Positions 2,433 through 55,903 of a stretch of DNA of 64,000 nt are shown here, one piece after another. The notes under the pieces are model-generated. The model saw nothing but the letters and a program-made list of their open reading frames with translations. It was not told the origin of the DNA and searched no databases. The first letter of the stretch is position 1, and the number at the start of each line of letters is the position of its first letter. The stretch is taken from assembly GCF_013315695.1 (NCBI RefSeq), contig NZ_CP054353.1; one strand, given 5' to 3'. Position numbers and translations under genes: made by a program. This DNA is from Escherichia coli (lineage in GTDB: Bacteria > Pseudomonadota > Gammaproteobacteria > Enterobacterales > Enterobacteriaceae).

Positions 2433-2439
2433 ATAAAAA

Positions 2440-37367: not shown

Positions 37368-37381
37368 GGTGTTGTTCTCCT

Positions 37382-37702: not shown

Positions 37703-37837
37703 TTGTTTTCCTCCCTGTGACAGATGACTGCATTCCGTGCCGGTTGCATTAACTGATAAGGCATATCTGCGTCTCCTGAAGACGTGCGTATCCCTGCGCG
37801 AATACGCACATTTAATTTTTCGGGTGTCGTTTTTTAA

Positions 37838-38573: not shown

Positions 38574-39161
38574 GGGACACCTCCACCACCGGCAGACGGG
38601 CAGCAAGGGAGAGCACATAGTCACGGACAAGGGAACGGCGGGCACTGCGTTCATCACCGGCGACGGTGCGAAGCATGCAGATACGGGGATGACGGTCTGC
38701 GCGACGGACAGCCGCAAACACAAAGACAAATTCAGGGTGTGAAGGGGTAAGGGTTGTAGCCATGATGGCAGCCTCCGTTAGATAGCAGGTTACGCTATCG
38801 CCGGAGTTTCCACGCTCGATGGCGATAGCCCAGACGGGGGTGGAAATACCGGCTCTAACGGATACCGGCCAGCCCGGAGGCTGCCCCGCCTGAGCTACCA
38901 TTGACTCTGCGGCATAATGAGCGGACGCGGGCAGGATGCACGGAGTTCCATCTGCTCGACTGACCACACACCACACCATAATCTGGCGCTCTGTGGCGTT
39001 GATTGCGACACAAAAAAAGACGCATGGCGCGTCATATGTCGCCGTTAGATTGCTCGGGTTTCCACGCCCGGCTGCCGATTTTGCGACAGCGGAAAAACTA
39101 TATCCGCAAATGCCGGAAAAAGGCAAGCCAGAAAAAGGGACTTTTTGCAGAACAGGCATCA

Positions 39162-39380
39162 TCATGCGTCGTACCCCCGTTTGCGTCCGGCAATGCGGCC
39201 GGCCATCCATGCGGTGACTTCAGAGTGCAGCCAGGCCACATTTTTACCGCCAAGACTCACCTGCGGCGGAAATTCCCCCTTACGGATGAGTTCGTAGATG
39301 GTCGAGCGTGACAGGCCGCACAGGTGCATCACTTCCGGAAGACGTAAAAAACGCTCCTGTGTGATGTCCGGCAGCGGCAT
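39162..39380 (-). CDS. AlpA/Vis-family excisionase-like transcriptional regulator
   Basis: product from [32 protein letters not shown] (AlpA-type HTH). Confidence 0.75.
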
Positions 39381-39704
39381 CAGTGGCGTCACAGGGGCGG
39401 GAGACGGGGAAGAAAAAACAGCTTGCATCGGGCTACCTCGTTAATGTCCATACAGCACCGGATAAGTCCGTCCGGCTTCGGGTAGCGCTTTATTTTGTGA
39501 ATATTTTCGGCAGACGCAACAGGGGGGATTTGTTCCGGCAGCCTTACAATGGCTGTGCATTTTTTGTACATCAGCGCCAGATAGCTTTAAAACGCTCTGG
39601 AAGGAGCTGGAAAAAATTATAGTGAAATACAAATTGTTTTTTCTTATTTATTTCAGTGAATTAATAAAAATAAAAAGTAATAAACAGCACAAAAAGCCCA
39701 TCAA

Positions 39705-39815
39705 CGGGTGAACAGTGGTGAACAGACGGTGAACAGTCATTACTGCGATTGTTCACCCTTTAACTTACTGTATTACTTATCTTTTTTCTTATTGTGAACA
39801 GAGGTGAACAGTAAA
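39705..39815. repeat. second iteron cluster (GTGAACAG/TGTTCACC repeats), P4 ori/crr-type
   Basis: gggtgaacagtggtgaacagacggtgaacag ... ttgttcaccc ... gtgaacagaggtgaacag; about 4.9 kb from first cluster. Confidence 0.6.
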
Positions 39816-39890
39816 ATATAAAAAAAACAAACAGTAAGCCGGTTTTTCCTGCGACCTTTTCCTGGCTTGCCGGTCGGAGGATGAGTCTCC

Positions 39891-39908
39891 TGTGTCAGGG
39901 CTGGCACA
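39891..39908 (+). promoter_or_regulatory. TGT-N12-ACA activator site (Ogr/Delta-type) of a Psid-like late promoter
   Basis: TGTgtcagggctggcACA centred about 80 nt upstream of sid ATG. Confidence 0.45.
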
Positions 39909-39980
39909 TCTGCAATGCGTCGTGTTGTTGTCCGGTGTACGTCACAATTTTCTTAACCTGAAGTGACGAGGAACCGGAAA

Positions 39981-40715
39981 ATGTCTGACAACACCATCCC
40001 TGAATATCTGCAACCCGCGCTGGCACAACTGGAAAAGGCCAGAGCCGCCCATCTTGAGAACGCCCGCCTGATGGATGAGACCGTCACGGCCATTGAACGG
40101 GCAGAGCAGGAAAAAAATGCGCTGGCGCAGGCCGACGGAAACGACGCTGACGACTGGCGCACGGCCTTTCGTGCAGCCGGTGGTGTCCTGAGCGATGAGC
40201 TGAAACAGCGCCACATTGAGCGCGTGGCACGCCGGGAGCTGGTACAGGAATATGACAATCTGGCCGTGGTGCTGAATTTTGAACGCGAACGCCTGAAAGG
40301 GGCGTGTGACAGCACGGCCACCGCCTACCGGAAGGCACATCATCACCTTCTGAGTCTGTATGCAGAGCATGAGCTGGAACACGCCCTGAATGAAACCTGT
40401 GAGGCGCTTGTCCGGGCAATGCATCTGAGCATCCTGGTACAGGAAAATCCGCTCGCCAACACCACCGGCCATCAGGGCTACATCTCACCGGAAAAGGCTG
40501 TCATGCAGCAGGTGAAATCATCGCTGGAACAGAAAATAAAACAGATGCAAATCAGCCTCAGCGGTGAGCCGGTTCTCCGGCTGGCCGGACTGTCAGCGGC
40601 AACACTCCCGCACATGGATTATGAGGTGGCAGGCACACCGGCGCAGCGCAAGGTGTGGCAGGACAAAATAGACCAGCAGGGAGCAGAGCTGAAGGCCAGA
40701 GGACTGCTGTCATGA
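39981..40715 (+). CDS. sid: Sid-like external scaffold / capsid size determination protein
   Basis: 244-aa product from MSDNTIPEY; first gene of sid-delta-psu order. Confidence 0.7.
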   Translation: MSDNTIPEYLQPALAQLEKARAAHLENARLMDETVTAIERAEQEKNALAQADGNDADDWRTAFRAAGGVLSDELKQRHIERVARRELVQEYDNLAVVLNFERERLKGACDSTATAYRKAHHHLLSLYAEHELEHALNETCEALVRAMHLSILVQENPLANTTGHQGYISPEKAVMQQVKSSLEQKIKQMQISLSGEPVLRLAGLSAATLPHMDYEVAGTPAQRKVWQDKIDQQGAELKARGLLS

Positions 40716-41212
40716 TTTACTGCCCGTCGTGTGGACATGTTGCTCACACCCGCCGCGCACATTTCATGGACGATGGCACCAAGATAATGATTGCACAGTG
40801 CCGGAATATTTATTGCTCTGCGACATTTGAAGCGAGTGAAAGCTTTTTCTCTGACAGTAAAGATTCAGGAATGGAATACATTTCAGGCAAACAGAGATAC
40901 CGCGATTCACTGACTTCTGCCTCCGGCAGTATGAAACGCCCGAAAAGAATGCTTGTGACCGGATATTGTTGTCGGAGATGTAAAGGCCTTGCACTGTCAA
41001 GAACATCGAGGCGTCTGTCTCAGGAAGTCACCGAGCGTTTTTATGTGTGCACGGAGCCGGGTTGTGGTCTGGTGTTTAAAACGCTTCAGACCATCAACCG
41101 CTTCATTGTTCGCCCGGTCACGCCGGACGAACTGGCAGAAAGCCTGCATGAAAAACAGGAACTGCCGCCAGTACGGTTAAAAACACAATCATATTCGCTG
41201 CGTCTGGAATGA
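40712..41212 (+). CDS. Delta-like late transcription activator (two Ogr-type zinc fingers)
   Basis: 166-aa product from MIYCPSCGH; two CxxC...CxxC units (CPSCGH...CRNIYC and CRRC...CTEPGC). Confidence 0.75.
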   Translation: MIYCPSCGHVAHTRRAHFMDDGTKIMIAQCRNIYCSATFEASESFFSDSKDSGMEYISGKQRYRDSLTSASGSMKRPKRMLVTGYCCRRCKGLALSRTSRRLSQEVTERFYVCTEPGCGLVFKTLQTINRFIVRPVTPDELAESLHEKQELPPVRLKTQSYSLRLE

Positions 41213-41285
41213 GGGCTGCCGGTTAACCCCGGCCGTCGCCGCACACCGTATTTTTATTCTTCAGCATGATGAGAAAGAGATAACG

Positions 41286-41858
41286 ATGGAAAGCACAGCC
41301 TTACAGCAGGCCTTTGACACCTGTCAGAATAACAAAGCAGCATGGCTGCAACGCAAAAATGAGCTGGCTGCGGCCGAACAGGAATATCTGCGGCTTCTGT
41401 CAGGAGAAGGCAGAAACGTCAGTCGCCTGGACGAATTACGCAATATTATCGAAGTCAGAAAATGGCAGGTGAATCAGGCCGCCGGTCGTTATATTCGTTC
41501 GCATGAAGCCGTTCAGCACATCAGCATCCGCGACCGGCTGAATGATTTTATGCTGCAGCACGGCACAGCACTGGCGGCCGCACTGGCACCGGAGCTGATG
41601 GGCTACAGTGAGCTGACGGCCATTGCCCGAAACTGTGCCATACAGCGTGCCACAGATGCCCTGCGTGAAGCCCTCCTGTCCTGGCTTGCGAAGGGTGAAA
41701 AAATTAATTATTCCGCACAGGATAGCGACATTTTAACGACCATCGGATTCAGGCCTGACGCGGCTTCGGTGGATGACAGCCGTGAAAAATTCACCCCTGC
41801 GCAGAACATGATTTTTTCGCGTAAAAGTGCGCAACTGGCATCACGTCAGTCTGTGTAA
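41286..41858 (+). CDS. psu: Psu-like polarity suppression / capsid decoration protein
   Basis: 190-aa ORF following delta. Confidence 0.75.
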   Translation: MESTALQQAFDTCQNNKAAWLQRKNELAAAEQEYLRLLSGEGRNVSRLDELRNIIEVRKWQVNQAAGRYIRSHEAVQHISIRDRLNDFMLQHGTALAAALAPELMGYSELTAIARNCAIQRATDALREALLSWLAKGEKINYSAQDSDILTTIGFRPDAASVDDSREKFTPAQNMIFSRKSAQLASRQSV

Positions 41859-41892
41859 AACTCCCCGAAAATCCGCCCGTTTTACTGAAAAA

Positions 41893-41921
41893 AGCCATGC
41901 ATCGATAAGGTGCATGGCTTT
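41893..41921 (+). terminator. putative terminator hairpin after psu
   Basis: agccatgca...tgcatggct stem followed by T-containing tract. Confidence 0.4.
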
Positions 41922-42021
41922 GCATGCGTTTTCCTGCCTCATTTTCTGTAAACCGTGCCATTCCCGGCGCGGTCTGAGCGTGTCAGTACAACTGCATTAA
42001 AACCGCCCCGCAAAGCGGGCG

Positions 42022-42040
42022 GGCGAGGCGGGGAAAGCAC
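42022..42040. other. cos site 19-mer GGCGAGGCGGGGAAAGCAC (P2/P4-type cohesive end)
   Basis: exact 19-mer as remembered for P2/P4 cohesive ends; located between psu and cargo/int. Confidence 0.5.
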
Positions 42041-42074
42041 TGCGCGCAGTATAAGAATTAAATAGGTATGGATT

Positions 42075-44033
42075 TTAAAATCCATCAAGTAGCTGATTGA
42101 TACCATTGCTCTCATCACAATTTATTTGCTCTAACTCAAATAAAGCACTGTCGTACTTTATTTGGGGAGTGTTTTCAAATGACAATAAAGATTCGATTAG
42201 TCTTATTTCTTTATCTTTATTTATGTCTTTAAGTGAGTCTAAAGTTAAATTGAATTTAACTTCGGGTTGTTTTCCTACTTCCATCATGATATTTGACTCC
42301 AACTCTGGATCAGTATTGAAGAATCGATGTGTCTTATGGAAATAACTAGGTTTTCTTGATTTTAAAATACTTAGTATATCCGACTTGATAGTGCTTTCCC
42401 GTGCTATCACAAGCCAATGGTTGGCAACCCCTGTGATGGTGGTAATGATGTGGGAGCCATTTTCACTTAGTTCATTAAAGGCTCTTAAGTCACCCTTGAA
42501 AAAATCATTTAGCAACTCATTTTCTTTATCTTTATCAAAAAGGTAAATTATTGAATTGCCGGCTAATGATATTTCAGCCTTGGTTTTTATAGTATCGCAA
42601 TTAAATTGCGCGGTCTCATTTTTTAATTCTTCGTAAGATGATTTTAAGTCTAAAAGCAAGCATTTTATTATACTTGATCTGAAAGATGAGTAATCAATAT
42701 CAGCACAAAGTGAAAATAAATTTCTGTGACGAATGGATTCAGGGCTGTAATATAGCTTTGTTAATATTTCTTTTTGGCGTTCTTTTGTGTCACGACAGAT
42801 AAACATAGCTGCAAAATATTCCATTAATGATTTGTGTGACCAACGAATAATAGCGCCTTCTTTGACAAATAATGGAACGGTTTCAATTAAGTCCTGAATA
42901 AAAAGAGATGGTGAAGTTGATATTCCGGGAATTTTTGAAATGATATTTTGCAATGTTATTTGCAGATCGTCTTTCGTAAACTCAATTTTACCTCCGTCTT
43001 TCAAACACCAAAAACCTAATCTCCTTAAGACCTGATGGAAGTCAGTGGAGTCTAGCTTAGAAAATTTTTCTCTAACATAACCAAGTTCTTTAGTTAAATC
43101 ATGAGACTCATACAAAGCGTCAAATACTTGGCTATAAAATAACTCTCTTTTTCTTGGTATTATCGGTTTGAATTTATATGCACAAAATAATAATGAAACA
43201 TAAAGAGGTGTGGATAAAAATTCATTTAGATTATGACCATTCTCCAGTCGTAATCCTTTAATTAATTGAGATGAAATAGGGCCACGTCCATCATATCGAC
43301 GTAATAGATCATACGCTTGATTCGTTTCTAATGGGTTGATTTTAAATCTTGAGAAACCATGTAGTTCTGATAAGAAATTATCATGACGAGAAGTTATAAT
43401 TATTTTGCTTTCTGAGAAATTATTAGCAAAGGTACTTAGTAAATTTACGATCTTGGATTTGAGTTGTTGTGGGATTTCATCTATGCCATCGAAAAGATAA
43501 ATAAAAGGGATTTTTTTGAGGCAGTTGTCTGAAATGTCTTCTCCTAAACCAAGTTGATGTTTCACCTGTAGCGCAAAATCATAATCTTTAGCACGTCGTA
43601 ATTCAATGTATATTGGAATGTATTCCTTATTAGCGATGCAATCTAAAGCAATTCTTTTCATTAGGGTGGACTTACCCATTCCTGCTGAGTCAGTGATTAA
43701 TATATGATTGAAATTATCTAATAAATCTGCATTGTCTTTTATTAGGCATGTGTATGGTTTTTTTTCATTATCGTAATAAATGCTCATTGGCTCATAAATA
43801 TCTAGAAGCTCTACTGGAGTATTTTGAAAAGCTAAGGTATTCACAAGGGAGCATTGCCCTTTCACATTTGATAGGAAACGTTCAAGATTTTTATTCAAGA
43901 AGCGTGCTGCATGTACATCTATTAAATAATTACGAACACTACTTTCTATGATAGGTAATATTTTATTCTTAATAACCTCCTTTGCCCATGGAAGGGATGC
44001 AGAGACTAATACATCAAGAGATACTGGTTGCAT
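42075..44033 (-). CDS. NACHT-type STAND NTPase (bacterial NLR-like), candidate anti-phage protein
   Basis: 652-aa ORF; Walker A DSAGMGKST, Walker B IYLFDGIDEI, sensor-1 KIIITSR; visibly AT-rich; starts 3 nt after int stop. Confidence 0.7.
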   Translation of the reverse strand: MQPVSLDVLVSASLPWAKEVIKNKILPIIESSVRNYLIDVHAARFLNKNLERFLSNVKGQCSLVNTLAFQNTPVELLDIYEPMSIYYDNEKKPYTCLIKDNADLLDNFNHILITDSAGMGKSTLMKRIALDCIANKEYIPIYIELRRAKDYDFALQVKHQLGLGEDISDNCLKKIPFIYLFDGIDEIPQQLKSKIVNLLSTFANNFSESKIIITSRHDNFLSELHGFSRFKINPLETNQAYDLLRRYDGRGPISSQLIKGLRLENGHNLNEFLSTPLYVSLLFCAYKFKPIIPRKRELFYSQVFDALYESHDLTKELGYVREKFSKLDSTDFHQVLRRLGFWCLKDGGKIEFTKDDLQITLQNIISKIPGISTSPSLFIQDLIETVPLFVKEGAIIRWSHKSLMEYFAAMFICRDTKERQKEILTKLYYSPESIRHRNLFSLCADIDYSSFRSSIIKCLLLDLKSSYEELKNETAQFNCDTIKTKAEISLAGNSIIYLFDKDKENELLNDFFKGDLRAFNELSENGSHIITTITGVANHWLVIARESTIKSDILSILKSRKPSYFHKTHRFFNTDPELESNIMMEVGKQPEVKFNLTLDSLKDINKDKEIRLIESLLSFENTPQIKYDSALFELEQINCDESNGINQLLDGF

Positions 44034-44036
44034 GAA

Positions 44037-45245
44037 TTATACCTTATTTTCTACGTTTAAATTTTTGACCTTAAGTCCCCACCAGTTCATTAAATCGATT
44101 CTGGTATGTAAATATGTTGAGCGGTTATATGCTCTTCTAACTTCGTTTTTGTCAGAGTGCGCTAAAGCAGCTTCAATGACATCTGGGTTAAAACCTCTTT
44201 CATTCATGGCTGTACTTGCTATTGAACGTAGACCATGAGCAACCAGCTTCCCGCCATAACCAATACGTTTTAAAGCAGCATTAGCAGTTTGGCTATTCAT
44301 TGGCTGTTTTGGGTCATTTCTACTGGGAAAAACATGTTCACGATGAGCACTGATTGGTTTCATTACCTCCAGAATCTCTATTGCCTGAGGTGATAAAGGA
44401 ACAATGTGTTCCCGCTTAGCTTTCATCCGTTCGGCTGGAATAGTCCAGAGCTTTGCGTCAAGATCGATCTCTGCCCAACGAGCACCGGAAGCTTCAGAAG
44501 GGCGCACAAGGGTCAGAAGCTGCCACTCAATTAGACAGCGAGTCGAAACAGAGAGGTTCGACATCACCAAAGAGCGCATGAGTTTTGGTAATTCTTCAGG
44601 TCGTAGCGTTGGCATGTGTTGCTTTTTGGGTTTCTCAAATGCCATACCAATACCAGATGCCGGGTTTGCATCAATCAGGCCAGTGTTGACGGCGTAGATC
44701 ATGATTTCGTTAATACGCTGCACCAGTCGACGTACAGTCTCTAGCGCCCCACGTGCTTTGATTGGCTCAAGGGTTTCAACTAGTGTTCGGGCTTTGATTT
44801 GCTGGACAGGGATCTCCCCGATGACAGGGAATACGTCTTTTTCCAGTGACCGCCATATATCTTTAGCGTAATCGGGTGTAACGCTTTTGCTTTTGAGCTG
44901 GAACCAGTTAGCGGCGACCGTTGAAAAAATACTGTCCAGAGCGATTTGCTGCTGTTCCTCTGCAACTTCGGCCTGAATTTGCGGGTCAATTCCGTTGGCT
45001 AACAAAGCAAGGTAATCCGCTCTTAACCGTCGAGCATCAGCAAGTGAAAGGGCGGGGAAAGCACCAAGCCCCATCATTGTCCGCTGTTTTGTTGCTGGAC
45101 GTTGATAACGGAAACGCCACAACTTCTTACCGTTCGTTTTAACGAGCAGAAAAAGACCATCGCCATCATGTAACGTTAGATCCTTTTCTAACGCTCTAGC
45201 GCGCAGAACTTCTGTGCTGGTCAGGGGGCGTGTCGTTCTTGCCAC
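44037..45245 (-). CDS. P4-type tyrosine integrase
   Basis: 402-aa ORF; conserved R...HxxR...Y catalytic pattern near C-terminus (AHGLRSIAST, Y in RRAYNRSTY); adjacent to ssrA 3' fragment. Confidence 0.9.
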   Translation of the reverse strand: MARTTRPLTSTEVLRARALEKDLTLHDGDGLFLLVKTNGKKLWRFRYQRPATKQRTMMGLGAFPALSLADARRLRADYLALLANGIDPQIQAEVAEEQQQIALDSIFSTVAANWFQLKSKSVTPDYAKDIWRSLEKDVFPVIGEIPVQQIKARTLVETLEPIKARGALETVRRLVQRINEIMIYAVNTGLIDANPASGIGMAFEKPKKQHMPTLRPEELPKLMRSLVMSNLSVSTRCLIEWQLLTLVRPSEASGARWAEIDLDAKLWTIPAERMKAKREHIVPLSPQAIEILEVMKPISAHREHVFPSRNDPKQPMNSQTANAALKRIGYGGKLVAHGLRSIASTAMNERGFNPDVIEAALAHSDKNEVRRAYNRSTYLHTRIDLMNWWGLKVKNLNVENKV

Positions 45246-45429
45246 TGTGGCCGCTCCTTCATTAATTGGTATACGCGTTTAGGTAAACATCCTACCGTAT
45301 ACCTAAACGTATACCAATAATCACTGGATTTAGCTGGATATCCTCGGACAACGGTAGACACAAAAAAGCCCGCAGAGCTTGTGCCATGCGGGCTTTCAGG
45401 ATTTCTCCGGACGTATCCGGAAGAGCAAG

Positions 45430-45474
45430 TGGTGGAGCTGGCGGGAGTTGAACCCGCGTCCGAAATTCCTACAT
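45430..45474 (-). other. ssrA: 45-nt copy of the ssrA (tmRNA) 3' end: att core at junction of the two prophages
   Basis: reverse complement reads ATGTAGGAATTTCGGACGCGGGTTCAACTCCCGCCAGCTCCACCA (tmRNA T-arm and acceptor with CCA); upstream tmRNA body absent. Confidence 0.7.
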
Positions 45475-45589
45475 ACCATTTTCACTATAACAAAAACATT
45501 AACTTGCGTTTAAAATCATCAAGTTAGTATTATCTTATGTTTGTCCGTTTTACTCATTTTTAATGCTCTGTCGCCAATCTGTCGCCACA

Positions 45590-46240
45590 TTATCCGCTGC
45601 TTGAGTTGAAATCTGTGGGTTTACGGAGATTAGATCTTATGGTTTTTTCAGCGATACGAATAGTCGAAAATTTATGCAGGTTCATCAGTGCTATACAAAT
45701 CCCAAGTGCAAAAAAGTAGCTGGACATTCCTAATCTTTGCATATCAGTAAGTTTATTAATTTTCTCTAAAATATGTTGGGTTACTAATCCTTCGTATACA
45801 AAAGGTATGGAAGTTATAAAACCGCCAATAAAATAGAATGTTAAGCTTATCAGCTTTATAGATTTTCTATATATCCAAAAGCGATATCTTTTTTTTGTCC
45901 ATTTAAATATTTGTTTTTCACTACTAATAGAAATTAGTTTTTGACACTTGCTATAGTTATCAATGTCATTAACTGGATCGTTAACACCTAAAAGAATCTC
46001 TCTCTGTTCTGGAGTTAGGTTCTTATCTTTTGTTATTGCAGCAATACCATAATTATATGCAACTTTCTTGATTTTGGGATCTTCAGTATTCTTATATAGA
46101 TTGTATGCAAACTCGCTAATGTTTTTGCGCGAGTTGAAAATCTTATCTTTGGGGAAAACCCAGCCGGATCTTACCGCGAGCATCTGTATGATCGGGGTAA
46201 TTATCGCGACAGAATACTTAATTATCTCGTTTATGTTCAT
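45590..46240 (-). CDS. hypothetical membrane protein, prophage cargo between att and int
   Basis: 216-aa AT-rich ORF with hydrophobic segments; starts 15 nt after int stop on same strand. Confidence 0.5.
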   Translation of the reverse strand: MNINEIIKYSVAIITPIIQMLAVRSGWVFPKDKIFNSRKNISEFAYNLYKNTEDPKIKKVAYNYGIAAITKDKNLTPEQREILLGVNDPVNDIDNYSKCQKLISISSEKQIFKWTKKRYRFWIYRKSIKLISLTFYFIGGFITSIPFVYEGLVTQHILEKINKLTDMQRLGMSSYFFALGICIALMNLHKFSTIRIAEKTIRSNLRKPTDFNSSSG

Positions 46241-46254
46241 GATCCATTGTTTAC

Positions 46255-47271
46255 TTAAATTAAGTTATAAAGAGGGTTTTTTGTTACTGCATCCTCCAGG
46301 TGGTCTGGAGAGAAGTGTGCATAAATCATCGTCATTTTAATATCTGAGTGCCCTAAAATATCACGTAAAACGAGTATGTTCCCACCGTTCATCATAAAAT
46401 GGCTGGCAAATGTATGGCGCAGGACGTGGGTGCATTGGCCTTCCGGTAGTTCAATACCGGCCCGTTTTACCGCCCGTTCAAAGGCTTTTCTGCATGGTGT
46501 GAATAATTTCCCTCGGTTTTTGGGTAGCTCGTTGTACAGATCCTGAGATATCGGTACGGTACGGTTTTTTTTACCCTTGGTCTTTGTATAGGTAATCCGG
46601 TATTTCGATAGTTGATGGCCCTGCAGGTTTTCAGCTTCACTCCAACGAGCACCGGTTGCTAGGCATATTTTTGCAATCATTAGCAGACTGGGGCTTTGAG
46701 AATCAGCACAGGCATCCAGCAGACGTTTAATTTCCTCCGGGGTTAGGAACGCCAGTTCACCCTCCGTAATTTTAAATGTTGGAAGCCCGGCAAGCGGGTT
46801 GGGGGCTGACCAGTGGCCCAGCTTTTTCAGTGTACCAAAAACAGATGATAGGTTGCGCTGTTCAAGGTTTACCGTGCGGGGCTTAACGGGTGACATGAAC
46901 GAGCCGTCTTCATTTTGGACCTCCCCCTTTAATCTGGCTTCCCGATATTTTGTGAAATCACCTGCTGTCAGCTCAGAGGCGATGGGATCGCCTAGACCAT
47001 TACAGATAATTCTAAGTTTCGCCATCAGGCGTTTGGGGTCTGCGAGTGTTTGACCATATAGGGAATACCACTGCTCAATCACTTCTGATAATCGCCGCCG
47101 ATCTTCCTTCTCACCAAGCCATGGCTTTTTGTTTACTTCGTTCATGGTGAAGTTTTCGAATGCTATGGCTTCGCCTTTCGTGGCAAATTGCTTACGCACG
47201 CGCTTGCCATTGCGTCCATTGGGATAGCACTCACACAACCATTTTCCGTTCGGCTGTTTTCTGATGGTCAT
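46255..47271 (-). CDS. P2/186-type tyrosine integrase
   Basis: 338-aa ORF; C-terminal HVLRHTFASHFMMNGGNILVLRDILGHSDIKMTMIYAHF catalytic block. Confidence 0.85.
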   Translation of the reverse strand: MTIRKQPNGKWLCECYPNGRNGKRVRKQFATKGEAIAFENFTMNEVNKKPWLGEKEDRRRLSEVIEQWYSLYGQTLADPKRLMAKLRIICNGLGDPIASELTAGDFTKYREARLKGEVQNEDGSFMSPVKPRTVNLEQRNLSSVFGTLKKLGHWSAPNPLAGLPTFKITEGELAFLTPEEIKRLLDACADSQSPSLLMIAKICLATGARWSEAENLQGHQLSKYRITYTKTKGKKNRTVPISQDLYNELPKNRGKLFTPCRKAFERAVKRAGIELPEGQCTHVLRHTFASHFMMNGGNILVLRDILGHSDIKMTMIYAHFSPDHLEDAVTKNPLYNLI

Positions 47272-47272
47272 A

Positions 47273-47905
47273 TCAAAGGCTCTTAATGATTTTCAGTGCA
47301 CGGCCTACTACCTCAATGTCATCCAGGCCACACTCAAACGATGAATCATCCTGATGCACTACTAATCTGTTTCCCGGGAGTCGAGTCAATTTAACAATGC
47401 TTTTTATCCCGTCGATATCGACTAACCACATACCATTCACTGGTGGTGTTTGGTTGCGATCTATTAAATAAGAATCACCAGAAGTAGTCACCAGCAGTAG
47501 GTTGCTTGAGTCTGAGGGGAGTATGCTGCTATCAATGATTGCTTTTCCAGCATCGACCAATAAACCACCGTTGAGAGTCGCCTTGTCAATTTCAGGAGAT
47601 ACTAGTTCAGAAAGAGGTACAACCTTGCTGGAGTTCACGGAATTGATATTTTTTTTAGGTTCAATGTTTGGACCTGGCTCCCCCTGTCCGGTGGTTAGCC
47701 ACAGTAAAGAAACTCCTGTTTCCAAGGCGCACTGAATCACCCACTCTGCAGGAAAACTATCTCTTAAGTATCTGTTTGCCATGGTGCTTTTTGATGCGCC
47801 TAAGTGATCGCAAAGTTGCTGTCTGGACTTGAAATCATAGGCTGCCATTAGTCTATGGATAGCTTCTCTTCCCCCTGTATTCTCTCCAGCCTTTACCTGT
47901 ATCAT
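47273..47905 (-). CDS. CI-type lysogeny repressor (N-terminal HTH, C-terminal oligomerisation/S24-like domain)
   Basis: 210-aa ORF divergent from apl/cII; HTH LGASKSTMANRYL. Confidence 0.7.
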   Translation of the reverse strand: MIQVKAGENTGGREAIHRLMAAYDFKSRQQLCDHLGASKSTMANRYLRDSFPAEWVIQCALETGVSLLWLTTGQGEPGPNIEPKKNINSVNSSKVVPLSELVSPEIDKATLNGGLLVDAGKAIIDSSILPSDSSNLLLVTTSGDSYLIDRNQTPPVNGMWLVDIDGIKSIVKLTRLPGNRLVVHQDDSSFECGLDDIEVVGRALKIIKSL

Positions 47906-47922
47906 TTTTTAATCCTGTTGAC

Positions 47923-47970
47923 GTATCAAATATTGGATCGTAGTATCTCGATGTATCAAATATTGAATCA
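47923..47970. promoter_or_regulatory. lysis-lysogeny switch region with two 18-bp direct operator-like repeats GTATCAAATATTG(G/A)ATC
   Basis: repeats at 47923-47940 and 47953-47970 between divergent cI and apl; TTGACG -35-like hexamer adjacent. Confidence 0.4.
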
Positions 47971-48024
47971 ATTAAAACGAGATAAAACGACGTAAACCAA
48001 ACCTTAATCGGGAGATACTGCACT

Positions 48025-48267
48025 ATGAGCACTGATATTTCAATTCGTGTACCAAAAGAGATGGCTACGCCTGCAGAGTTCGCGGAATGGGAAGGTATCT
48101 CCCGCGGCTCCGTGTATCAAAAAATTCACCATGGTCAGCTTGCTAAATACATGGTCAAGAAAGAAAAAAATAAAGGCCGCGTAAACCTTCGTTATCTGAT
48201 GTACAAAACTGATCAGGTCCGTGAATCCCTCGGTCATTCCAACTTCCGCGTCATTGTTGGTAAGTAA
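48025..48267 (+). CDS. Apl/Cox-like excisionase-regulator
   Basis: 80-aa ORF first in rightward early operon, divergent from cI. Confidence 0.5.
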   Translation: MSTDISIRVPKEMATPAEFAEWEGISRGSVYQKIHHGQLAKYMVKKEKNKGRVNLRYLMYKTDQVRESLGHSNFRVIVGK

Positions 48268-48299
48268 GTTCAATTATGGGAACTTTCTAAGGGGGCACC

Positions 48300-48809
48300 A
48301 TGTTTGATTACAAGATTTCCAAACATCCGCATTTCGATGAAGCCTGTAGGGCTTTTGCACTGCGTCACAACCTGGTGCAACTGGCAGAACGTGCAGGCAT
48401 GAATGTACAGATTCTGCGGAACAAGCTGAACCCAGCTCAGCCTCATTTATTAACCGCACCAGAAATCTGGCTGCTTACCGATCTGACTGAAGATTCAACG
48501 CTGGTAGATGGTTTTCTGGCACAGATTCATTGTCTGCCATGTGTACCGATTAATGAGGTGGCAAAAGAGAAACTGCCACATTACGTCATGAGTGCAACCG
48601 CAGAGATCGGGCGTGTTGCTGCAGGTGCGGTATCTGGCGATGTAAAAACCTGTGCCGGTCGTCGTGATGCTATCAGCAGCATTAACTCTGTAACACGACT
48701 GATGGCGCTGGCGGCTGTTTCATTGCAGGCCCGTTTACAGGCTAATCCTGCGATGGCGAGTGCAGTTGATACCGTGACTGGCCTCGGTGCTTCATTCGGT
48801 TTGCTGTGA
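48300..48809 (+). CDS. phage CII-like regulatory protein (186 CII family)
   Basis: 169-aa ORF at cII position. Confidence 0.6.
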
Positions 48810-48983
48810 GGTGCTTATGCTGACGAAAGAACCATCATTTGCATCGCTGCTGGTAAAACAAAGCCCGGCAATGCACTACGGTCACGGCTGGATCATGGGT
48901 GAGGATGGTAAACGCTGGCATCCGTGCCGTTCACAAGATGAATTGCTGTCTGAATTGACCACGGGGAAACGGAGAAAGTCAAA

Positions 48984-49208
48984 ATGTATGCAGCGGAAAG
49001 TGAAGTGGTTTATCAGTTTCGTTACAGAGGGGAGAGTTATTCAGTACCTGAAGATGATTTGCTCTGTTGTTATCCGTCGTTGTCGGGCGATGGCAGTTAC
49101 TTTTTCACGCTAAAGGATGGGACGTTTTTACGAGGAGAGCAGGTTAAAGAAACGATACGAAAAAATGTATCTCCTCTCGAACGTTACCGTAAGAACAAAG
49201 AACAATAG
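48984..49208 (+). CDS. hypothetical early protein
   Basis: 74-aa ORF in early operon; overlaps a less protein-like 108-aa ORF. Confidence 0.3.
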   Translation: MYAAESEVVYQFRYRGESYSVPEDDLLCCYPSLSGDGSYFFTLKDGTFLRGEQVKETIRKNVSPLERYRKNKEQ

Positions 49209-49230
49209 TTGCGTTTTGGGGATATGAATT

Positions 49231-49572
49231 ATGGCAATTAATGGCGCTGCAGCGACTGTTCCATTAAGCCCCGGTGAACGCCTGAATGGACTTAATCATA
49301 TTGCGGAGTTAAGGGCGAAAGTATTTGGCCTTAATATTGAGTCAGAGCTTGAGCGGTTTATTAAAGATATGCGTGATCCACGGGATATCAATAATGAACA
49401 AAATAAACGGGCACTGGCTGCCATATTCTTTATGGCAAAAATTCCAGCTGAACGTCATAGCATCAGCATTAATGAGCTGACCACTGACGAAAAGCGGGAG
49501 TTGATTAAAGCAATGAATCATTTTCGTGCAGTGGTGAGCTTATTTCCCAGACGGCTAACCATGCCGAATTAA
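49231..49572 (+). CDS. hypothetical early protein
   Basis: 113-aa ORF. Confidence 0.4.
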   Translation: MAINGAAATVPLSPGERLNGLNHIAELRAKVFGLNIESELERFIKDMRDPRDINNEQNKRALAAIFFMAKIPAERHSISINELTTDEKRELIKAMNHFRAVVSLFPRRLTMPN

Positions 49573-49633
49573 CCAACTAATGAAATTAATGGCGTAAACC
49601 CGCCGGGCATCCCTTTATCTAAATTCAGGAGAA

Positions 49634-49873
49634 TTGATTATGCGTAATATTGAAACCCTCTCGACTAAAACCGGACCGGATGACGCAGGGCTTAATATTT
49701 TACTGACAGAGGCTCGTCTGGAAGAACGCCGGGCAAGGGCTGAAGCAATGGCAGCTCGCCTTGATAGCCTGGCGTGTCATATCACATCCCGCCAGCTAAA
49801 CCACGTCGAAGCGGCAGAACTGCTGCGTGTAACTGCTGAAGCAATCCAGAACGAAGCGCAGGAGATCCACTAA
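49634..49873 (+). CDS. hypothetical early protein
   Basis: 79-aa ORF; stop overlaps next start. Confidence 0.4.
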   Translation: MIMRNIETLSTKTGPDDAGLNILLTEARLEERRARAEAMAARLDSLACHITSRQLNHVEAAELLRVTAEAIQNEAQEIH

Positions 49874-50100
49874 TGGCTGATGCAATGGATCTCGTACAGC
49901 AGCGCGTTGAAGAAGAACGCCAGCGCCATATTCGTGCTGCCCGTGCCAAAACACCGGGCGTGTCTCGCGTGCTTTGTATTGAATGTGAAGCGCCAATTCC
50001 GCCAGCACGACGCCGCGCCATTCCGGGAGTGCAGCTTTGCATTACCTGCCAGGAAATCGTAGAGCTGAAAGGCAAACATTACAACGGAGGTGCTGTATGA
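49873..50100 (+). CDS. TraR/DksA-family C4 zinc-finger protein
   Basis: 75-aa ORF with CIECEAPIP...CITCQ zinc finger. Confidence 0.6.
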
Positions 50101-50399
50101 CAAGGGCAGTGCGTATCCATCAATTAAAAATTGCACCTAAGTATTTCAACGCTGTGGTTGCAGGTCAAAAGACGGCTGAACTTCGTAAAGACGATCGTGG
50201 CTATAAAGTTGGTGATGTTCTTTCTCTTTGCGAATGGAAGCATGGCGTATTTACGGGTAGGGAATGGGCCGCTGTTATCTCTCATGTGCTTCCGGTTAAT
50301 GACGTCATGGCAGTTTCAGAACAATGGGTGATGCTATCAATTCGCCCATTAACTCCATTAGAAGCTTTGGGATATGTTATTGCAGGAGGTGCTGTATGA
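50097..50399 (+). CDS. small ASCH/DUF3850-like protein
   Basis: 100-aa product from [17 protein letters not shown]. Confidence 0.4.
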
Positions 50400-51253
50400 G
50401 CACCATCCTGAAATGGGCAGGTAATAAAACTGCCATTATGTCCGAACTGAAAAAACATCTTCCTGCTGGCCCGCGACTGGTTGAACCTTTCGCGGGTTCC
50501 TGTGCTGTGATGATGGAGACGGATTACCCCAGCTATCTTGTTGCGGATATTAATCCTGATTTAATCAACCTCTATAAAAAGGTTGCTGCTGATTGTGAAT
50601 CGTTTATATCTCGCGCCAGAGTTTTATTTGAGATCGCAAACAGGGAGGTGGCTTATTACAACATAAGGCAGGAGTTTAATTACTCAACTGAAATTACTGA
50701 TTTCATGAAAGCGGTATATTTCCTGTATCTAAATCGTCACGGTTACCGTGGTTTATGTCGCTATAACAAGAGCGGGCATTTCAACATTCCCTACGGTAAT
50801 TATAAAAATCCGTATTTCCCTGAAAAAGAAATTCGCGCATTTGCAGAAAAAGCCCAGCGAGCAACGTTTATCTGCGCCAGCTTTGATGAAACGCTGGCGA
50901 TGTTGAAAGCGGGGGATGTGGTGTATTGCGATCCGCCGTATGACGGTACGTTTTCCGGCTATCACACTGACGGCTTCACTGAAGATGACCAGTATCACCT
51001 GGCATCTGTTCTTGAACATCGGTCATCAGAAGGACATCCGGTCATTGTTTCTAACAGTGACACATCCCTGATCCGTTCGCTGTATCGCAATTTTACTCAC
51101 CACTACATCAAGGCAAAACGCAGCATCGGTGTGGCAGCTGGCGAGGGTAAATCAGCAACAGAAATCATTGCTGTTTCCGGGCCGCGCTGCTGGGTGGGAT
51201 TTGATTATTCGCGTGGCGTGGATAGTTCTGCCGTGTACGGAGTACGTGCATGA
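50396..51253 (+). CDS. DNA adenine methyltransferase (Dam-like, phage-encoded)
   Basis: product from [11 protein letters not shown]; catalytic DPPY motif in [10 protein letters not shown]. Confidence 0.8.
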
Positions 51254-53664
51254 GTCATGCCGATATGAACAACTGCTGCGGCTTTAACGAAGCTGCCGCA
51301 TCGTTCTCATGGAACAGCCCGAAAAAGGCCATTAACCCTTATCTGGACCCGGCGGAAGTTGCGCCGGTTTCTACGCTTTCAAACCTGATCACTCTGTACG
51401 CTGCCGATAACGAGCAGGAACAGCTGCGCCGTGAGGCGCTGAGTGATCAGGTCTGGGAGCGTTATTTCTTTAATGAATCCCGTGATCCTGTCCAGCGCGA
51501 AATGGAGCAGGATAAGCTCATTAGTCGGGCAAAGCTGGCGCATGAGCAGCAGCGTTTTAACCCGGACATGGTCATTCTGGCAGACGTCAGCGCCCAGCCC
51601 TCCCATATCAGCAAGCCGCTGATGCAACGTATTGAATACTTCAGCAGCCTTGGCAGGCCAAAGGCTTATTCCCGCTATTTGCGTGAGACGATTAAGCCAT
51701 GTCTGGAACGGCTGGAGCATGTACGCGACAGTCAGCTATCCACATCTTTTCGCTTTATGGCAAGCCATGAAGGGCTGGACGGCCTGCTGATTCTGCCTGA
51801 AATGAGTCAGGATCAGGTGAAACGCCTGTCCACCCTTGTTGCTGCGCATATGAGCATGTGCCTTGATGCAGCTTGTGGCGATTTGTATGCCACCGATGAC
51901 GTTAAGCCAGAAGAAATCCGCAAGACATGGGAAAAGGTGGCAGCAGAAACCCTGCGACTGGATGTCATACCGCCTGCGTTTGAGCAACTCCGCCGGAAAA
52001 GAAACCGCCGTAAACCCGTGCCATATGAACTCATTCCGGGTTCGCTGGCGCGTATGTTGTGCGCCGATTGGTGGTACCGGAAATTATGGAAGATGCGTTG
52101 CGAATGGCGGGAAGAGCAGTTGCGTGCTGTTTGCCTGGTCAGCAAAAAAGCATCTCCCTATGTCAGCTATGAAGCCGTGATGCATAAACGTGAGCAGCGC
52201 CGTAAGTCGCTGGAGTTTTTCCGTTCTCATGAACTGGTGAACGAAGACGGCGACACGCTGGACATGGAGGATGTGGTAAACGCCAGCAGCAGCAACCCTG
52301 CGCATCGCCGCAATGAGATGATGGCCTGTGTTAAAGGTCTGGAGCTTATCGCGGAAATGCGCGGTGACTGCGCCGTTTTCTACACCATCACCTGTCCGTC
52401 ACGTTTCCATTCCACGCTAAATAACGGCAGGCCCAACCCGACCTGGACAAATACGACGGTAAGACAAAGCAGTGATTATCTGGTCGGCATGTTTGCTGCA
52501 TTTCGTAAGGCGATGCACAAAGCCGGATTGCGCTGGTATGGCGTGCGGGTGGCTGAGCCGCATCATGACGGTACAGTTCACTGGCACCTGTTGTGTTTTA
52601 TGCGCAAAAAAGATCGCCGCACCATTACTGCTTTGTTGCGTAAGTTTGCCATTCGTGAAGACCGCGAGGAGCTGGGTAATAACACGGGACCACGCTTTAA
52701 GTCTGAGCTGATAAACCCGCGCAAAGGTACGCCAACAAGCTACATCGCGAAATACATCAGTAAGAACATTGACGGGCGTGGTCTGGCTGGCGAGATCAGC
52801 AAGGAAACGGGTAAATCCCTGCGTGATAACGCTGAATACGTTAATGCCTGGGCGTCTCTGCATCGTGTTCAGCAATTCCGCTTCTTTGGCATTCCGGGGC
52901 GTCAGGCTTACCGTGAACTGCGATTGCTGGCTGGTCAGGCGGCAAGGCAACAGGGGGACAAAAAAGCAGGTGCGCCGGTACTGGATAACCCGCGCCTTGA
53001 TGCAATCCTGGCTGCTGCTGATGCTGGTTGTTTTGCCACCTACATCATGAAGCAGGGCGGCGTACTGGTTCCCCGCAAATATCACCTCATCAGAACTGCT
53101 TATGAAATCAACGAAGAACCGACCGCATATGGCGATCACGGTATTCGTATTTATGGCATCTGGTCACCCATTGCAGAGGGCAAGATCTGCACTCATGCGG
53201 TGAAGTGGAAAATGGTTCGTAAGGCCGTTGACGTTCAGGAGGCGGCAGCCGACCAGGGCGCTTGCGCCCCTTGGACTCGTGGCAATAACTGTCCCCTTGC
53301 TGAAAATTTGTACCAACAAGGGAAAGACAAATCAGCTGATGGAGATACCAGAACGGATATCACCCGCATGGATGACAAGGAGTTGCACGATTACCTGCAC
53401 AGTATGAGCAAAAAAGAGCGCCGGGAACTGGCAGCAAGGTTACGCCTGGTGAAACCGAAACGGCGTAAAGACTACAAACAGCGAATTACAGATCATCAGC
53501 GACAGCAGCTCGTGTATGAACTGAAGTCCAGGGGATTTGATGGCAGCGAGAAAGAGGTCGATTTACTGCTTCGCGGCGGCAGTATTCCGTCAGGAGCAGG
53601 CCTGCGTATCTTCTATCGGAACCAGCGTTTGCAGGAAGATGATAAGTGGCGAAACCTGTATTAA
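51250..53664 (+). CDS. replication initiation endonuclease (P2 gpA-like, rolling-circle)
   Basis: 804-aa ORF; HxH metal motif (VHWHLL) and tyrosine motif YIAKYISK. Confidence 0.8.
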
Positions 53665-53816
53665 TTACGCGGGTTAACAATTCGTGCTCTTAATAATACC
53701 AGGCATATCAGGCCGATGAACGTAAAAAAACGTTTTACATCAGTAAGATTATTATATACTGTAAATATAAACAGTAGTTATTTATACAGTATTTCTTTGG
53801 TGTTATAGGAGGAAAG

Positions 53817-54005
53817 ATGCAGGACTATTTTTTGGAGTCTTTGAAGCTCCAGCGCATTGATTTTTTTCTTAAGCTTGTAGCGGCTAGTGAGTGTAGTGAT
53901 GAAGAGAAGGGGCTGGCTTTGCAGTGGGTTTCTGAACTGACAGATGAACTTATGGCAAAAATCAGAACCCACGAATACAACCGCTCAATGGATGTCATCA
54001 GTTGA
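53817..54005 (+). CDS. hypothetical small protein
   Basis: 62-aa ORF upstream of DinI-like gene. Confidence 0.3.
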   Translation: MQDYFLESLKLQRIDFFLKLVAASECSDEEKGLALQWVSELTDELMAKIRTHEYNRSMDVIS

Positions 54006-54015
54006 GGTGACTTTT

Positions 54016-54249
54016 ATGCGCATTGAAATAATGATCGATAAAGAGCAGAAGATTAGCCAGTCTACCCTGGACGCCTTTGAATCCGAGCTTTACCGCAATC
54101 TGCGCCCCCTGTATCCCAAAACGGTAATTCGTATCCGTAAAGGTAGCTCTAACGGTGTGGAACTGACCGGACTGCAACTGGACGAAGAAAGGAAACAAGT
54201 AATGAAAATTATGCAGAAGGTGTGGGAAGACGACAGCTGGCTGCATTAA
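54016..54249 (+). CDS. DinI-family protein
   Basis: 77-aa product MRIEIMIDKEQ...VWEDDSWL resembles DinI (MRIEV...WESADDWF). Confidence 0.6.
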   Translation: MRIEIMIDKEQKISQSTLDAFESELYRNLRPLYPKTVIRIRKGSSNGVELTGLQLDEERKQVMKIMQKVWEDDSWLH

Positions 54250-54519
54250 GAAACGTTGCTGGCGTCTGAACTTGCTTCTGGCGTCAGCAAGGTTGAACAA
54301 CGAGCTATGCGAGGCGTTAGTGTCAATTTGTTACCTTAACCACTATATATGCCAGGAAATTAACAGTTCTTAAGAAACCGCTTGCATGATCGAGCGCATT
54401 GAACTTAAGTTTAAGTAACGAAATCAACAGATGATATTGTTGTCTAAATTTTAAAGATAATCTGTTGAGGTTGTAGGCGTCGGAGTGTAGACTTCCGCGC
54501 CATGTGAAAAGGGGGAGTT

Positions 54520-54735
54520 ATGTCAAGCATCGCCGCATTTAGCCTGGGTAACCCAGTTGAACGTCTGGCAAGGGTTCTTAAAGAGAACCAGGACAAACTC
54601 AATCTTAGTAAAGATGGTTTTGTGTCCGTAGACTTGTCTAACAAAAGAGCAATGGATGCCATCAAGGCACAGATGGATAAGCTTGAAGGCATCAAAACGA
54701 GCACTGTAAAAGAGAAAACTAATAGAACCAGATAA
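54520..54735 (+). CDS. hypothetical small protein, translationally coupled to next gene
   Basis: 71-aa ORF; TAATG stop/start overlap with 280-aa gene. Confidence 0.4.
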   Translation: MSSIAAFSLGNPVERLARVLKENQDKLNLSKDGFVSVDLSNKRAMDAIKAQMDKLEGIKTSTVKEKTNRTR

Positions 54736-55577
54736 TGGCAACATTACTTTTAGCAGTGATTTTGGTTAGTGGTTTTATTTATGTAAACCTATCACTTTCA
54801 ACAAGATACCGATATAAGCGTTCCAACGGCTGGGACGCTTATTTTTTTGTGGCTGCCTGGGGTATCGTTTTTTTTCTCCTTGGCGGTTTTTTCACCTTTA
54901 TTTTGAACGTCAGCGGAGGGTTTCGTTGGCTGGCTAATGCCTTGAATCTAACACCTGACAGTTTTAACGGCATGTTGTCTTCATCGAAAGACAAACTTCA
55001 AAGAATAAATGAAATCAAACAGATAGCATGGGTTATGATTTCAATTGTCCTCGCTGCGATTTCAGGTTTTGGAAATAAGTTACGCACATCACGTGGAGAT
55101 CGTCGCTGGGATGCCTTAGCTAAAGCTGTGGGTAATAACGCTTTCGAATCATTACTCATGGAAGCGTCCGCAAGACAGTTTCCGATCATAGCAACTCTGT
55201 CGTCTCGCAAAATCTATGTTGGTCTTGTTACTTGTCCGGCGTTAGAAAACGGGCTTTCAGAACACCTTGAACTTCTCCCGATGTTAAGCGGATATAGGGA
55301 TAAAGATGATCTAACGATTAGTATCACGACTAACTATCACCAACATTATCTTGATAGTGGTGTGATAAGTGGAATGTCTCGGCTTAATATCGAAGATTTC
55401 CGTGTGCTCATACCAAAAGATGAGGTTGAAACAATTTCGTTTTTTGATACTGAGACATATAACAAATTTAAAGAAAATGAAGCCAGGGATAGAAAGAACT
55501 GTCGAAAGATTGGTAGTAAAAGTGCATCTTCGCGCAGCAAGCGTGCAGCAGATGCTGAGTCAAATGATCGTGCATGA
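54735..55577 (+). CDS. hypothetical membrane protein (about 3 N-terminal TM helices plus soluble C-terminal domain), prophage cargo
   Basis: 280-aa AT-rich ORF at tin/old position after gpA. Confidence 0.5.
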   Translation: MATLLLAVILVSGFIYVNLSLSTRYRYKRSNGWDAYFFVAAWGIVFFLLGGFFTFILNVSGGFRWLANALNLTPDSFNGMLSSSKDKLQRINEIKQIAWVMISIVLAAISGFGNKLRTSRGDRRWDALAKAVGNNAFESLLMEASARQFPIIATLSSRKIYVGLVTCPALENGLSEHLELLPMLSGYRDKDDLTISITTNYHQHYLDSGVISGMSRLNIEDFRVLIPKDEVETISFFDTETYNKFKENEARDRKNCRKIGSKSASSRSKRAADAESNDRA

Positions 55578-55625
55578 CTATGCTGCATGAGATCGCATGA
55601 TCGTTTGAGGATCGTTTTTGCTAAG

Positions 55626-55649
55626 GCCCGCCAGAACTGGCGGGCTTTT
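55626..55649 (+). terminator. rho-independent terminator after 280-aa gene
   Basis: gcccgcca-gaac-tggcgggc hairpin followed by TTTT. Confidence 0.55.
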
Positions 55650-55694
55650 GCGTAGATCATGCACCTGCATGAAAACTACTACATAAAGCGGGCA

Positions 55695-55713
55695 GGCGTG
55701 GCGGGGATACGAG
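55695..55713. other. cos-like site of the P2-like prophage (GGCGTGGCGGGGATACGAG)
   Basis: 14/19 identity with satellite cos 19-mer; upstream of portal gene region. Confidence 0.35.
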
Positions 55714-55903
55714 CGCGCGTTGGGATGATAATGTCCTTTCGAATGTAAGGCAGAGTATGTTATTTTTACTCTTGGTTGCTTTGTATAGTTCGATAAAATT
55801 ATTATATATTTAGTATGTGATATATTGATGTCGATGGTGACTGGTTGTGGATGAAGCTAAAAACAAAAAGGCATGATGCGATTTATTGAAGGAATGATGA
55901 TTA

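Follow-up and report, generated by a model that had tools for sequence, protein, structure and literature searches.

Two P2-family cos sites of different classes in a P4-like satellite and the adjoining Fels-2-type prophage of Escherichia coli

A stretch of 64,000 nucleotides (nt) from the Escherichia coli contig NZ_CP054353.1 (assembly GCF_013315695.1), here called the window, carries a P4-like satellite and, adjoining it, a prophage of the P2 family, each of which possesses a 19-nt cos (cohesive-end) sequence. Comparison of these two 19-mers and their surroundings suggests, with a probability that we put at about 0.62, that they are genuine P2-family cos sites of different classes, that the two elements are neighbours by way of the ssrA gene and do not form a functional pair, and that the helper of the satellite is likely to be a phage of the P2/186 type. 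The elements and the parts of their cos regions are as follows, with coordinates counted from the first letter of the window.

~34545-45430: P4-like satellite, ~10.9 kb
45476 onward: P2-family prophage, which extends beyond the window end
41897-41997, + strand: upstream part of the satellite cos with TGCAT/ATGCA motifs, a putative cosB-like terminase-binding region
42003-42022, - strand: hairpin of G+C (CCGCCC/GGGCGG) followed by a T-run, which abuts the satellite cos at its left nick and is terminator-like for leftward transcripts
42022-42040, + strand: satellite cos 19-mer GGCGAGGCGGGGAAAGCAC, identical to that of P4 and P2 (site 1)
42041-42047, + strand: conserved right flank TGCGCGC of the satellite cos, where homology to other elements ends and cargo starts
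55571-55670, + strand: upstream part of the prophage cos with TGCAT/ATGCA motifs and a GCCCGCCAG..CTGGCGGGC hairpin
55695-55713, + strand: prophage cos 19-mer GGCGTGGCGGGGATACGAG, of the Fels-2/SEN8 type (site 2)
55714-55719, + strand: conserved right flank CGCGCG of the prophage cos

Two cos sites of the P2 family

Both 19-mers are located, on the + strand, where the first-pass annotation of this DNA had placed them, and the likeness that it described was found again: the two agree at 14 of 19 positions, with mismatches at positions 5, 14, 16, 17 and 19, both are directly preceded by AAAGCGGGC, and 27 of 35 positions agree once flanks are included. By itself, a resemblance of 14/19 is at chance level, mononucleotide shuffles of the window yielding on average 1.4 matches of at least 14/19, and matches of this grade to the P4 19-mer are also present elsewhere in the window, i.e., at 20968, 45046 (15/19) and 47557 (- strand). 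Perfect matches to the pattern GGCGWGGCGGGGAWAS are restricted to site 1 and site 2, with an expectation of 0.23 for the window even when two mismatches are allowed.

The 15/19 match to P4 cos at 45046-45064 (+ strand; GAAAGGGCGGGGAAAGCAC), within which 45051-45064 represents an exact 14-mer, falls in the satellite integrase gene. It was considered as a second cos and is treated as probably due to chance because the cos flanks are missing. The same match is present in the satellite integrase gene of E. coli HS4 and absent from the int gene of the P4 reference.

The end junctions of P2, P4, 186, Fels-2, both sites of the window and both sites of strain HS4 were aligned (eight sequences). This alignment, which includes the comparison with P2, P4 and 186 that had been proposed as a check, returned the P4/P2 19-mer at site 1 and an overall architecture that is common to both sites, P2 and 186. 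Judged against the reference genomes, site 1 is the cos of the satellite, as had been supposed, and of the canonical P4/P2 type. The 19-mer is identical, the 322 bp upstream are 97.8% identical to P4, the last base of this match to the P4 reference is 42021, and 42022 corresponds to P4 base 1; furthermore, the records of P2, P4 and 186 open with their respective 19-mers, which those of P2 and 186 annotate as the cohesive end. The site also occupies the same place after psu as in P4, and displays the conserved flanks (~30 nt upstream and 7 nt downstream) and the TGCAT arrays of its class, with TGCAT/ATGCA motifs starting at 41897, 41898, 41911, 41921 and 41993, i.e., positions -125, -124, -111, -101 and -29. 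The base that follows the 19-mer (base 20) is T, as in P2, while the P4 reference has C. Homology to P2-type phages stops 7 nt past the 19-mer and hotspot cargo extends from there; past this point site 1 differs from P4, as a NACHT NTPase gene replaces the gop/beta/cII genes. In P4 and P2 this cos yields 5' cohesive ends of 19 nt, according to Ziermann and Calendar (1990; cited in PMC9122126).

Site 2 equals the cos given for the Salmonella phage SEN8, which is related to Fels-2 and RE-2010 (PMC5427200), and the same 19-mer occurs at the equivalent place in Fels-2 (NC_010463) and in E. coli HS4. As in the Fels-2/SEN8 cos, it is located between gene A and the portal gene, its upstream flank is ~90-96% identical, and it is linked to a terminase and a portal protein of the Fels-2 clade, which bears out the claim of a cos on the prophage side. 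The TGCAT/ATGCA motifs start at 55571, 55584, 55659 and 55666 (positions -124, -111, -36 and -29). Site 2 is taken as real because of its match to the cos pattern, its identity to a published cos, its position between A and the portal gene, and the cos architecture of its flanks, which is in register with that of the family. It could nevertheless be argued that site 2 is a chance or relic similarity and that the prophage is packaged from another site, given that 14/19 alone is within chance, that the SEN8 cos is described as found during annotation, with end mapping not made explicit (PMC5427200), which also weighs against our interpretation, and that the related prophage of strain 98-3133 is degraded. 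We consider this very improbable, as an exact published cos is found in the canonical position of the family, ~150 bp of its upstream flank recur in 1,279 of the 5,426 complete E. coli genomes searched, in nearly all of which homology ends sharply at 55719, 6 nt past the 19-mer, its TGCAT arrays are in register with those at the annotated cohesive ends of P2 and 186, and the A-to-Q interval holds no other match to the cos pattern.

A cos profile built from 171 dereplicated IMG/VR regions (78 P4-like and 93 P2-like) revealed a common plan, in which clusters of TGCAT/ATGCA occur in register at approximately -125 to -97 and -36 to -25, as compared to a background of 0.43 such motifs per 200 nt in the window. 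At the 19-mer, this plan consists of AAGCGGGCR, the left nick, a 13-nt block GGCGWGGCGGGGA, six variable bases, the right nick and YGCGCG. We infer that the TGCAT arrays represent terminase-binding sites, and that the outer flanks, read on opposite strands, form a symmetric pair GCGSGCR^, at which cutting by the terminase would generate 19-nt 5' overhangs of the kind annotated for P2 and 186. Across this profile, the resemblance between site 1 and site 2 is best described as homology of the whole family, P2 and 186 included.

Within this common plan the two sites differ in class at the right nick, where site 1 reads AGCAC^T and site 2 reads CGAG^C (^ marking the nick). The cos of 186 and PSP3, GGCGTGGCGGGGAAAGCAT, shares the entire architecture with both sites of the window and resembles site 2 in having T at position 5, yet its right half, AGCAT, belongs to the class of the satellite and is unlike that of the neighbour. 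The CCGCCC/GGGCGG hairpin with its T-run at the left nick is a trait of P2/P4-class cos sites; no such hairpin is present in the corresponding stretch of site 2 (55675-55694), the Fels-2 class having ACTACAT at that place, while 186 seems to keep a shorter pairing there through changes on both arms (CCCA/TGGG).

Sites 1 and 2 are thereby confirmed as real and already published cos sequences in known kinds of element, and because both 19-mers are known cos sequences of known element types, the finding of the sites is an ordinary one.

Cos classes, terminase clades and the helper of the satellite

The packaging genes of the prophage that lie within the window are the following, with amino acid identities to reference proteins.

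56956-57987, - strand: portal gene Q, 89% to Fels-2 Q and 62% to P2 Q
57984-59750, - strand: terminase ATPase subunit gpP of the Fels-2 clade, 63% to P2 and 186 gpP
61805-62455, + strand: terminase endonuclease/small subunit gpM of the Fels-2 clade, 48% to P2 M and 186 R

The gpN and gpO proteins of the prophage are 59% and 45% identical to those of P2, respectively. For comparison, P2 and 186 share 70% (gpM), 88% (gpP), 76% (gpN) and 81% (gpO) identity with each other. The early region of the prophage, comprising CI, an Apl-like protein, CII, Fil and a DinI/Tum-like protein, is 186-like and in that respect unlike the Fels-2/SEN8 type; by gene comparison, the prophage is thus classed as a Fels-2-clade packaging module combined with a 186-like early region.

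Among the IMG/VR loci in which both cos and packaging genes were readable, the class of the cos coincides with the clade of the terminase. The gpP protein is closer to that of the window than to that of P2 in none of 48 loci with an AGCAY-type cos and in all 26 loci with an ACGAK-type cos; AGCAY loci encode a gpP with 78-99.7% identity to that of P2, while ACGAK loci encode one with 97-99.8% identity to that of the window and 63% to that of P2. The same split was observed for gpM and, very nearly, for gpQ, where 36 of 37 ACGAK loci are closer to the window. In this sample, AGCAY overhangs are associated with P2/186-clade terminases only, and ACGAK overhangs with Fels-2-clade terminases only, an association that is exceptionless for gpP and gpM.

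The satellites fall on one side of this split. Alignment of Psu against IMG/VR returned 160 Psu-anchored loci, corresponding to 98 distinct regions, 97 of which contain a recognisable cos: 45 are of type AAAGCAC, 44 of type AGAGCAT, and eight are minor AGCAY variants, while a Fels-2-type cos was found in 0 of these 97 regions. Furthermore, all five satellites from other genera, obtained by a Psu search of species-representative genomes, are AGCAY. Fels-2-type phages represent the commonest class of P2-like phage in the IMG/VR sample (38 classified plus 11 unclassified of 120 loci). Both main satellite cos types have matching P2-like phages, with 25 P2-type phages in the sample, and an exhaustive scan for the AGAGCAT 19-mer returned 19 P2-like phages and 85 satellites.

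To count how often satellite and phage markers occur jointly, chimeric megablast queries were run against the 5,426 E. coli genomes and evaluated by inclusion-exclusion, a procedure that treats genomes as phylogenetically independent and uses megablast-level markers, degraded prophages included, both of which temper the outcome. Counted in this way, a P4-type psu occurs together with a Fels-2-type cos in 246 genomes as against 253 expected (odds ratio 0.95, p 0.57), and together with a P2/186-type gpP in 456 genomes as against 326 expected (odds ratio 1.96, p 4e-21). Fels-2-type cos and P2/186-type gpP are independent of each other (383 observed, 388 expected), and about one in four E. coli genomes contains a Fels-2-type phage. 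The satellite marker is thus associated with the P2/186-type terminase and not with the Fels-2-type cos, and the association expected if the neighbour were its helper was not seen. Strain 1002W03 contains the same tandem pair, together with the same TIR cassette (described below), and in addition a P2-type prophage elsewhere in its chromosome, with a canonical P2 cos at a distance of 171 bp from its portal gene.

The first-pass annotation had read the resemblance of the two sites as support for packaging of the satellite by the terminase of its neighbour. This part of its reading is not upheld, because of the class split, the AGCAY-only satellites, the co-occurrence in E. coli and the additional P2-type prophage of strain 1002W03: the resemblance is family-level homology between sites of different classes, with the AGCAC class of the satellite cos standing against the ACGAG class and Fels-2-clade terminase of the neighbour. 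Because the satellite cos belongs to the class that is linked to P2/186-clade terminases, its packaging helper would most likely be a P2/186-type phage, whereas the Fels-2-type neighbour probably does not serve in this role, or would do so poorly at best.

Several points weigh against this conclusion and in favour of the neighbour as a working helper, whose terminase would read elements common to both classes, tolerate the six variable bases and package the satellite upon induction. The TGCAT arrays, AAGCGGGCR, the 13-nt left block and YGCGCG are in register in both classes, and the outer flanks (i.e., the half-sites) and TGCAT arrays, being conserved in both, may be what the terminase actually reads. 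The covariation of cos and terminase could reflect mere physical linkage rather than co-evolved specificity, given that a distance of 0.2-3 kb separates cos from Q and P. Two differences in the overhang do not prevent the packaging of P4 by 186, and both 186 and PSP3 are known to help P4, so that some variation in the overhang is tolerated. The mismatched pairing also recurs, in HS4 as a tandem with different cargo and in one IMG/VR contig; three further isolate genomes in IMG/VR harbour a P4-like satellite and a Fels-2-type phage, bringing the number of such isolate genomes to four, and in 12 E. coli genomes (H51-H62) a match at a single location spans both elements, the two cos sequences having been read in HS4 only.

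On balance, we regard it as unlikely, though by no means negligible, that the neighbour acts as helper. In gpP and gpM alike, the deep split between terminase clades coincides with the cos class at every locus, no satellite in the survey carries a cos of the Fels-2 class even though phages of this class are the most numerous in the sample, psu is associated with the P2/186 type and not with the Fels-2 type in E. coli, and the common ssrA target accounts for the tandem placement. In addition, the capsid and scaffold proteins of the neighbour are only distantly similar to those of P2 (the 59% and 45% given above), which places the Sid-dependent remodelling of its capsid in question.

As regards tandem arrangements in general, many P4-like satellites are located near one end of predicted "viral" contigs of 45-60 kb in IMG/VR (e.g., L301, i.e., 2600255180_000003, L344, L354 and L358), which suggests that satellite-plus-prophage tandems are common. 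On the IMG/VR contig 2558860161_000007, a satellite cos of type AGAGCAT is accompanied by a cos of the Fels-2 type.

The shared ssrA site and the cargo adjacent to cos

The attachment sites, the satellite genes and the features to the left of the satellite are listed below.

26596: tRNA with CAT anticodon, annotated in HS4 as tRNA-Ile
29689-34362: ypjA-like autotransporter (open reading frame list and HS4 annotation)
34520-34545: degenerate copy of the ssrA 3' end (GCTGGCGG-AGTTTGAA resemblance), taken as the distal attachment site of the satellite and its left boundary
34680-34979: P4-type crr repeats of 120 nt
35034-37367, - strand: satellite alpha primase-helicase, 777 residues as in P4 alpha; the syntenic HS4 gene is annotated as primase-helicase
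41286-41858, + strand: satellite psu, 190 residues, with 163 bp from its stop codon to cos, in a region 97.8% identical to P4
42075-44033, - strand: satellite hotspot cargo, a NACHT/SNaCT5 STAND NTPase of 652 residues (Pfam NACHT 2.2e-8, SNaCT5 3.4e-7)
44037-45245, - strand: satellite tyrosine integrase (Pfam Phage_integrase, Phage_int_M and Arm-DNA-bind_3)
45430-45475, - strand: ssrA 3' fragment of 46 nt at the satellite/prophage junction

The 46-nt fragment at the junction is taken to be ssrA because 26 nt of it match the 3' end of that gene exactly. In NZ_OZ547117.1, a satellite with 99.9% identity was found whose match stops at 45474, i.e., at the end of the ssrA fragment, and this neighbour is missing there, while strain 98-3133 possesses an intact tmRNA gene at the far end of a related prophage. 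CP4-57-type integrases as well as Fels-2 and SopEPhi are known to integrate at ssrA. Satellite and prophage thus adjoin because both target ssrA, each having integrated at its 3' end.

The satellite consists of crr repeats, alpha, sid, delta, psu, cos, the NACHT/SNaCT5 gene and the integrase gene, i.e., P4 core genes and crr repeats within ~11 kb, without structural genes, and with gene sizes and order as in P4; this assignment was scored directly for psu and int alone, and for the remaining genes it is derived from the size and order of open reading frames and from synteny with HS4. The match of the 652-residue cargo protein to the PADLOC Avs2 model is very weak. The same satellite with its NACHT cargo was observed in at least three further E. 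coli genomes.

The prophage genes upstream of the portal gene, as far as they are discussed here, are as follows.

45590-46240, - strand: open reading frame of 216 residues between the ssrA fragment and the prophage integrase gene
46255-47271, - strand: prophage integrase, 54% identical to 186 Int
51250-53664, + strand: prophage replication gene A (sequence comparison and HS4 annotation)
54735-55577, + strand: open reading frame of 280 residues just upstream of the prophage cos
55904-56923, + strand: two-gene cargo between the prophage cos and the portal gene (TIR cassette)
55904-56320, + strand: protein of 138 residues with four hydrophobic segments
56321-56923, + strand: TIR-domain protein of 200 residues (Pfam TIR_2 3.6e-17; PADLOC TIR models), whose N-terminal part has two hydrophobic segments
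56929-56949: hairpin resembling a bidirectional terminator, located between the TIR and portal genes

The order of the prophage is the 216-residue open reading frame, int, CI, Apl-like, CII, A, DinI/Tum-like, the 280-residue open reading frame, cos, the TIR cassette, Q, P, O, N and M. The 216-residue reading frame is without a Pfam or PADLOC match, and HS4 has a different gene, encoding 309 residues, in its place; this slot between the attachment site and int looks like a third variable cargo slot, of a kind mentioned in a 2026 preprint. The 280-residue reading frame occupies the place of 186 orf97, family searches returned no match for it, and its 3' part is 80% shared with a Klebsiella P2-like phage.

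The TIR cassette had been placed between cos and the portal gene at the extreme left of the packaged genome, and this holds under the P2 map convention: as the cargo is inserted directly after cos and occupies the gap up to the portal gene, the cassette makes up the first ~1.2 kb of the left virion DNA end. It is rare, being present in 2 of the 5,426 E. coli genomes, and a tblastn search of the phage collection with the TIR protein returned no match. In strain 98-3133 (E. coli O157:H16; L212, 20001-24000) the cassette is identical, the related prophage being degraded with a truncated portal gene fused to a tail-fibre region, and where the window has its satellite this strain has an integrase/ParB/recombinase element, which is of a different kind than P4-like satellites.

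Cargo between cos and portal is a feature that the prophage of the window shares with Fels-2, which itself carries a 1.7-kb gene in this gap, while its E. coli host and its cargo of a transmembrane protein and a transmembrane TIR protein set it apart from the Fels-2/SEN8-type phages of Salmonella and Klebsiella. In Fels-2-type loci the gap from cos to portal has a median of 1,475 bp (range 189-3,383) and exceeds 600 bp in 32 of 38 loci, as compared to 171-178 bp in 24 of 25 P2-type loci, the remaining one having 2,098 bp, and to 171-176 bp in those P2-type loci in which gene A was located as well; the median distance from the end of A to cos is 1,516 bp for the Fels-2 type and 2,861 bp for the P2 type. 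These distances show that the side of cos on which cargo is carried is lineage-specific, i.e., downstream of cos (the left virion end) in the Fels-2 type and upstream (the right end) in the P2 type, and the placement of the TIR cassette is the normal one for its lineage. HS4 forms an exception, in that its cargo is upstream of cos and its cos is 180 bp from the portal gene.

Defence hotspots adjacent to cos have already been described for P4-like satellites and P2-like phages (Rousset et al. 2022, PMC9122126), and the window conforms to this description, with satellite cargo between psu and int, phage cargo between A and Q, and both next to cos. The cargo varies among the window, HS4, 98-3133 and 1002W03, and its NACHT and TIR domains would make it defence-type by domain content. 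The same study validated a TIR-plus-transmembrane system from the hotspot of the P2-like phage AC1, to which the cassette of the window, with a small four-segment protein and a membrane-anchored TIR protein, is conceptually similar. While the A-to-Q interval is treated as one hotspot in PMC9122126, in the loci analyzed here the side of cos that carries the cargo depends on the lineage.

Implications for P2-like phages and their satellites

The sites themselves add nothing new, since both 19-mers had been published as cos and defence hotspots next to cos were already on record. The new content is modest and computational, and consists of the sharp division into two cos/terminase classes with satellites in one of them, and of the lineage-specific side of the cargo. 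A tentative model, to which we give somewhat less than even odds, is that there are two co-inherited cos/terminase classes, one of AGCAY overhangs with P2/186-clade terminases and one of ACGAK overhangs with Fels-2-clade terminases, that P4-like satellites use AGCAY only, and that Fels-2-type phages, which often stand in tandem with satellites at ssrA, are outside the packaging range of these satellites, their diverged cos and terminase representing an escape from satellite piracy.

The immediate consequence is a correction, in that a P2-like prophage which adjoins a P4-like satellite is not to be assumed to be its helper, while current surveys take 'P2-like' as a single helper class. If the class split reflects function, it would permit refined predictions of helper range. 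A lack of recent exchange of defence genes between P2 and P4, despite their co-residence, has been reported in a 2026 preprint, and the class split, if functional, might help to explain it.

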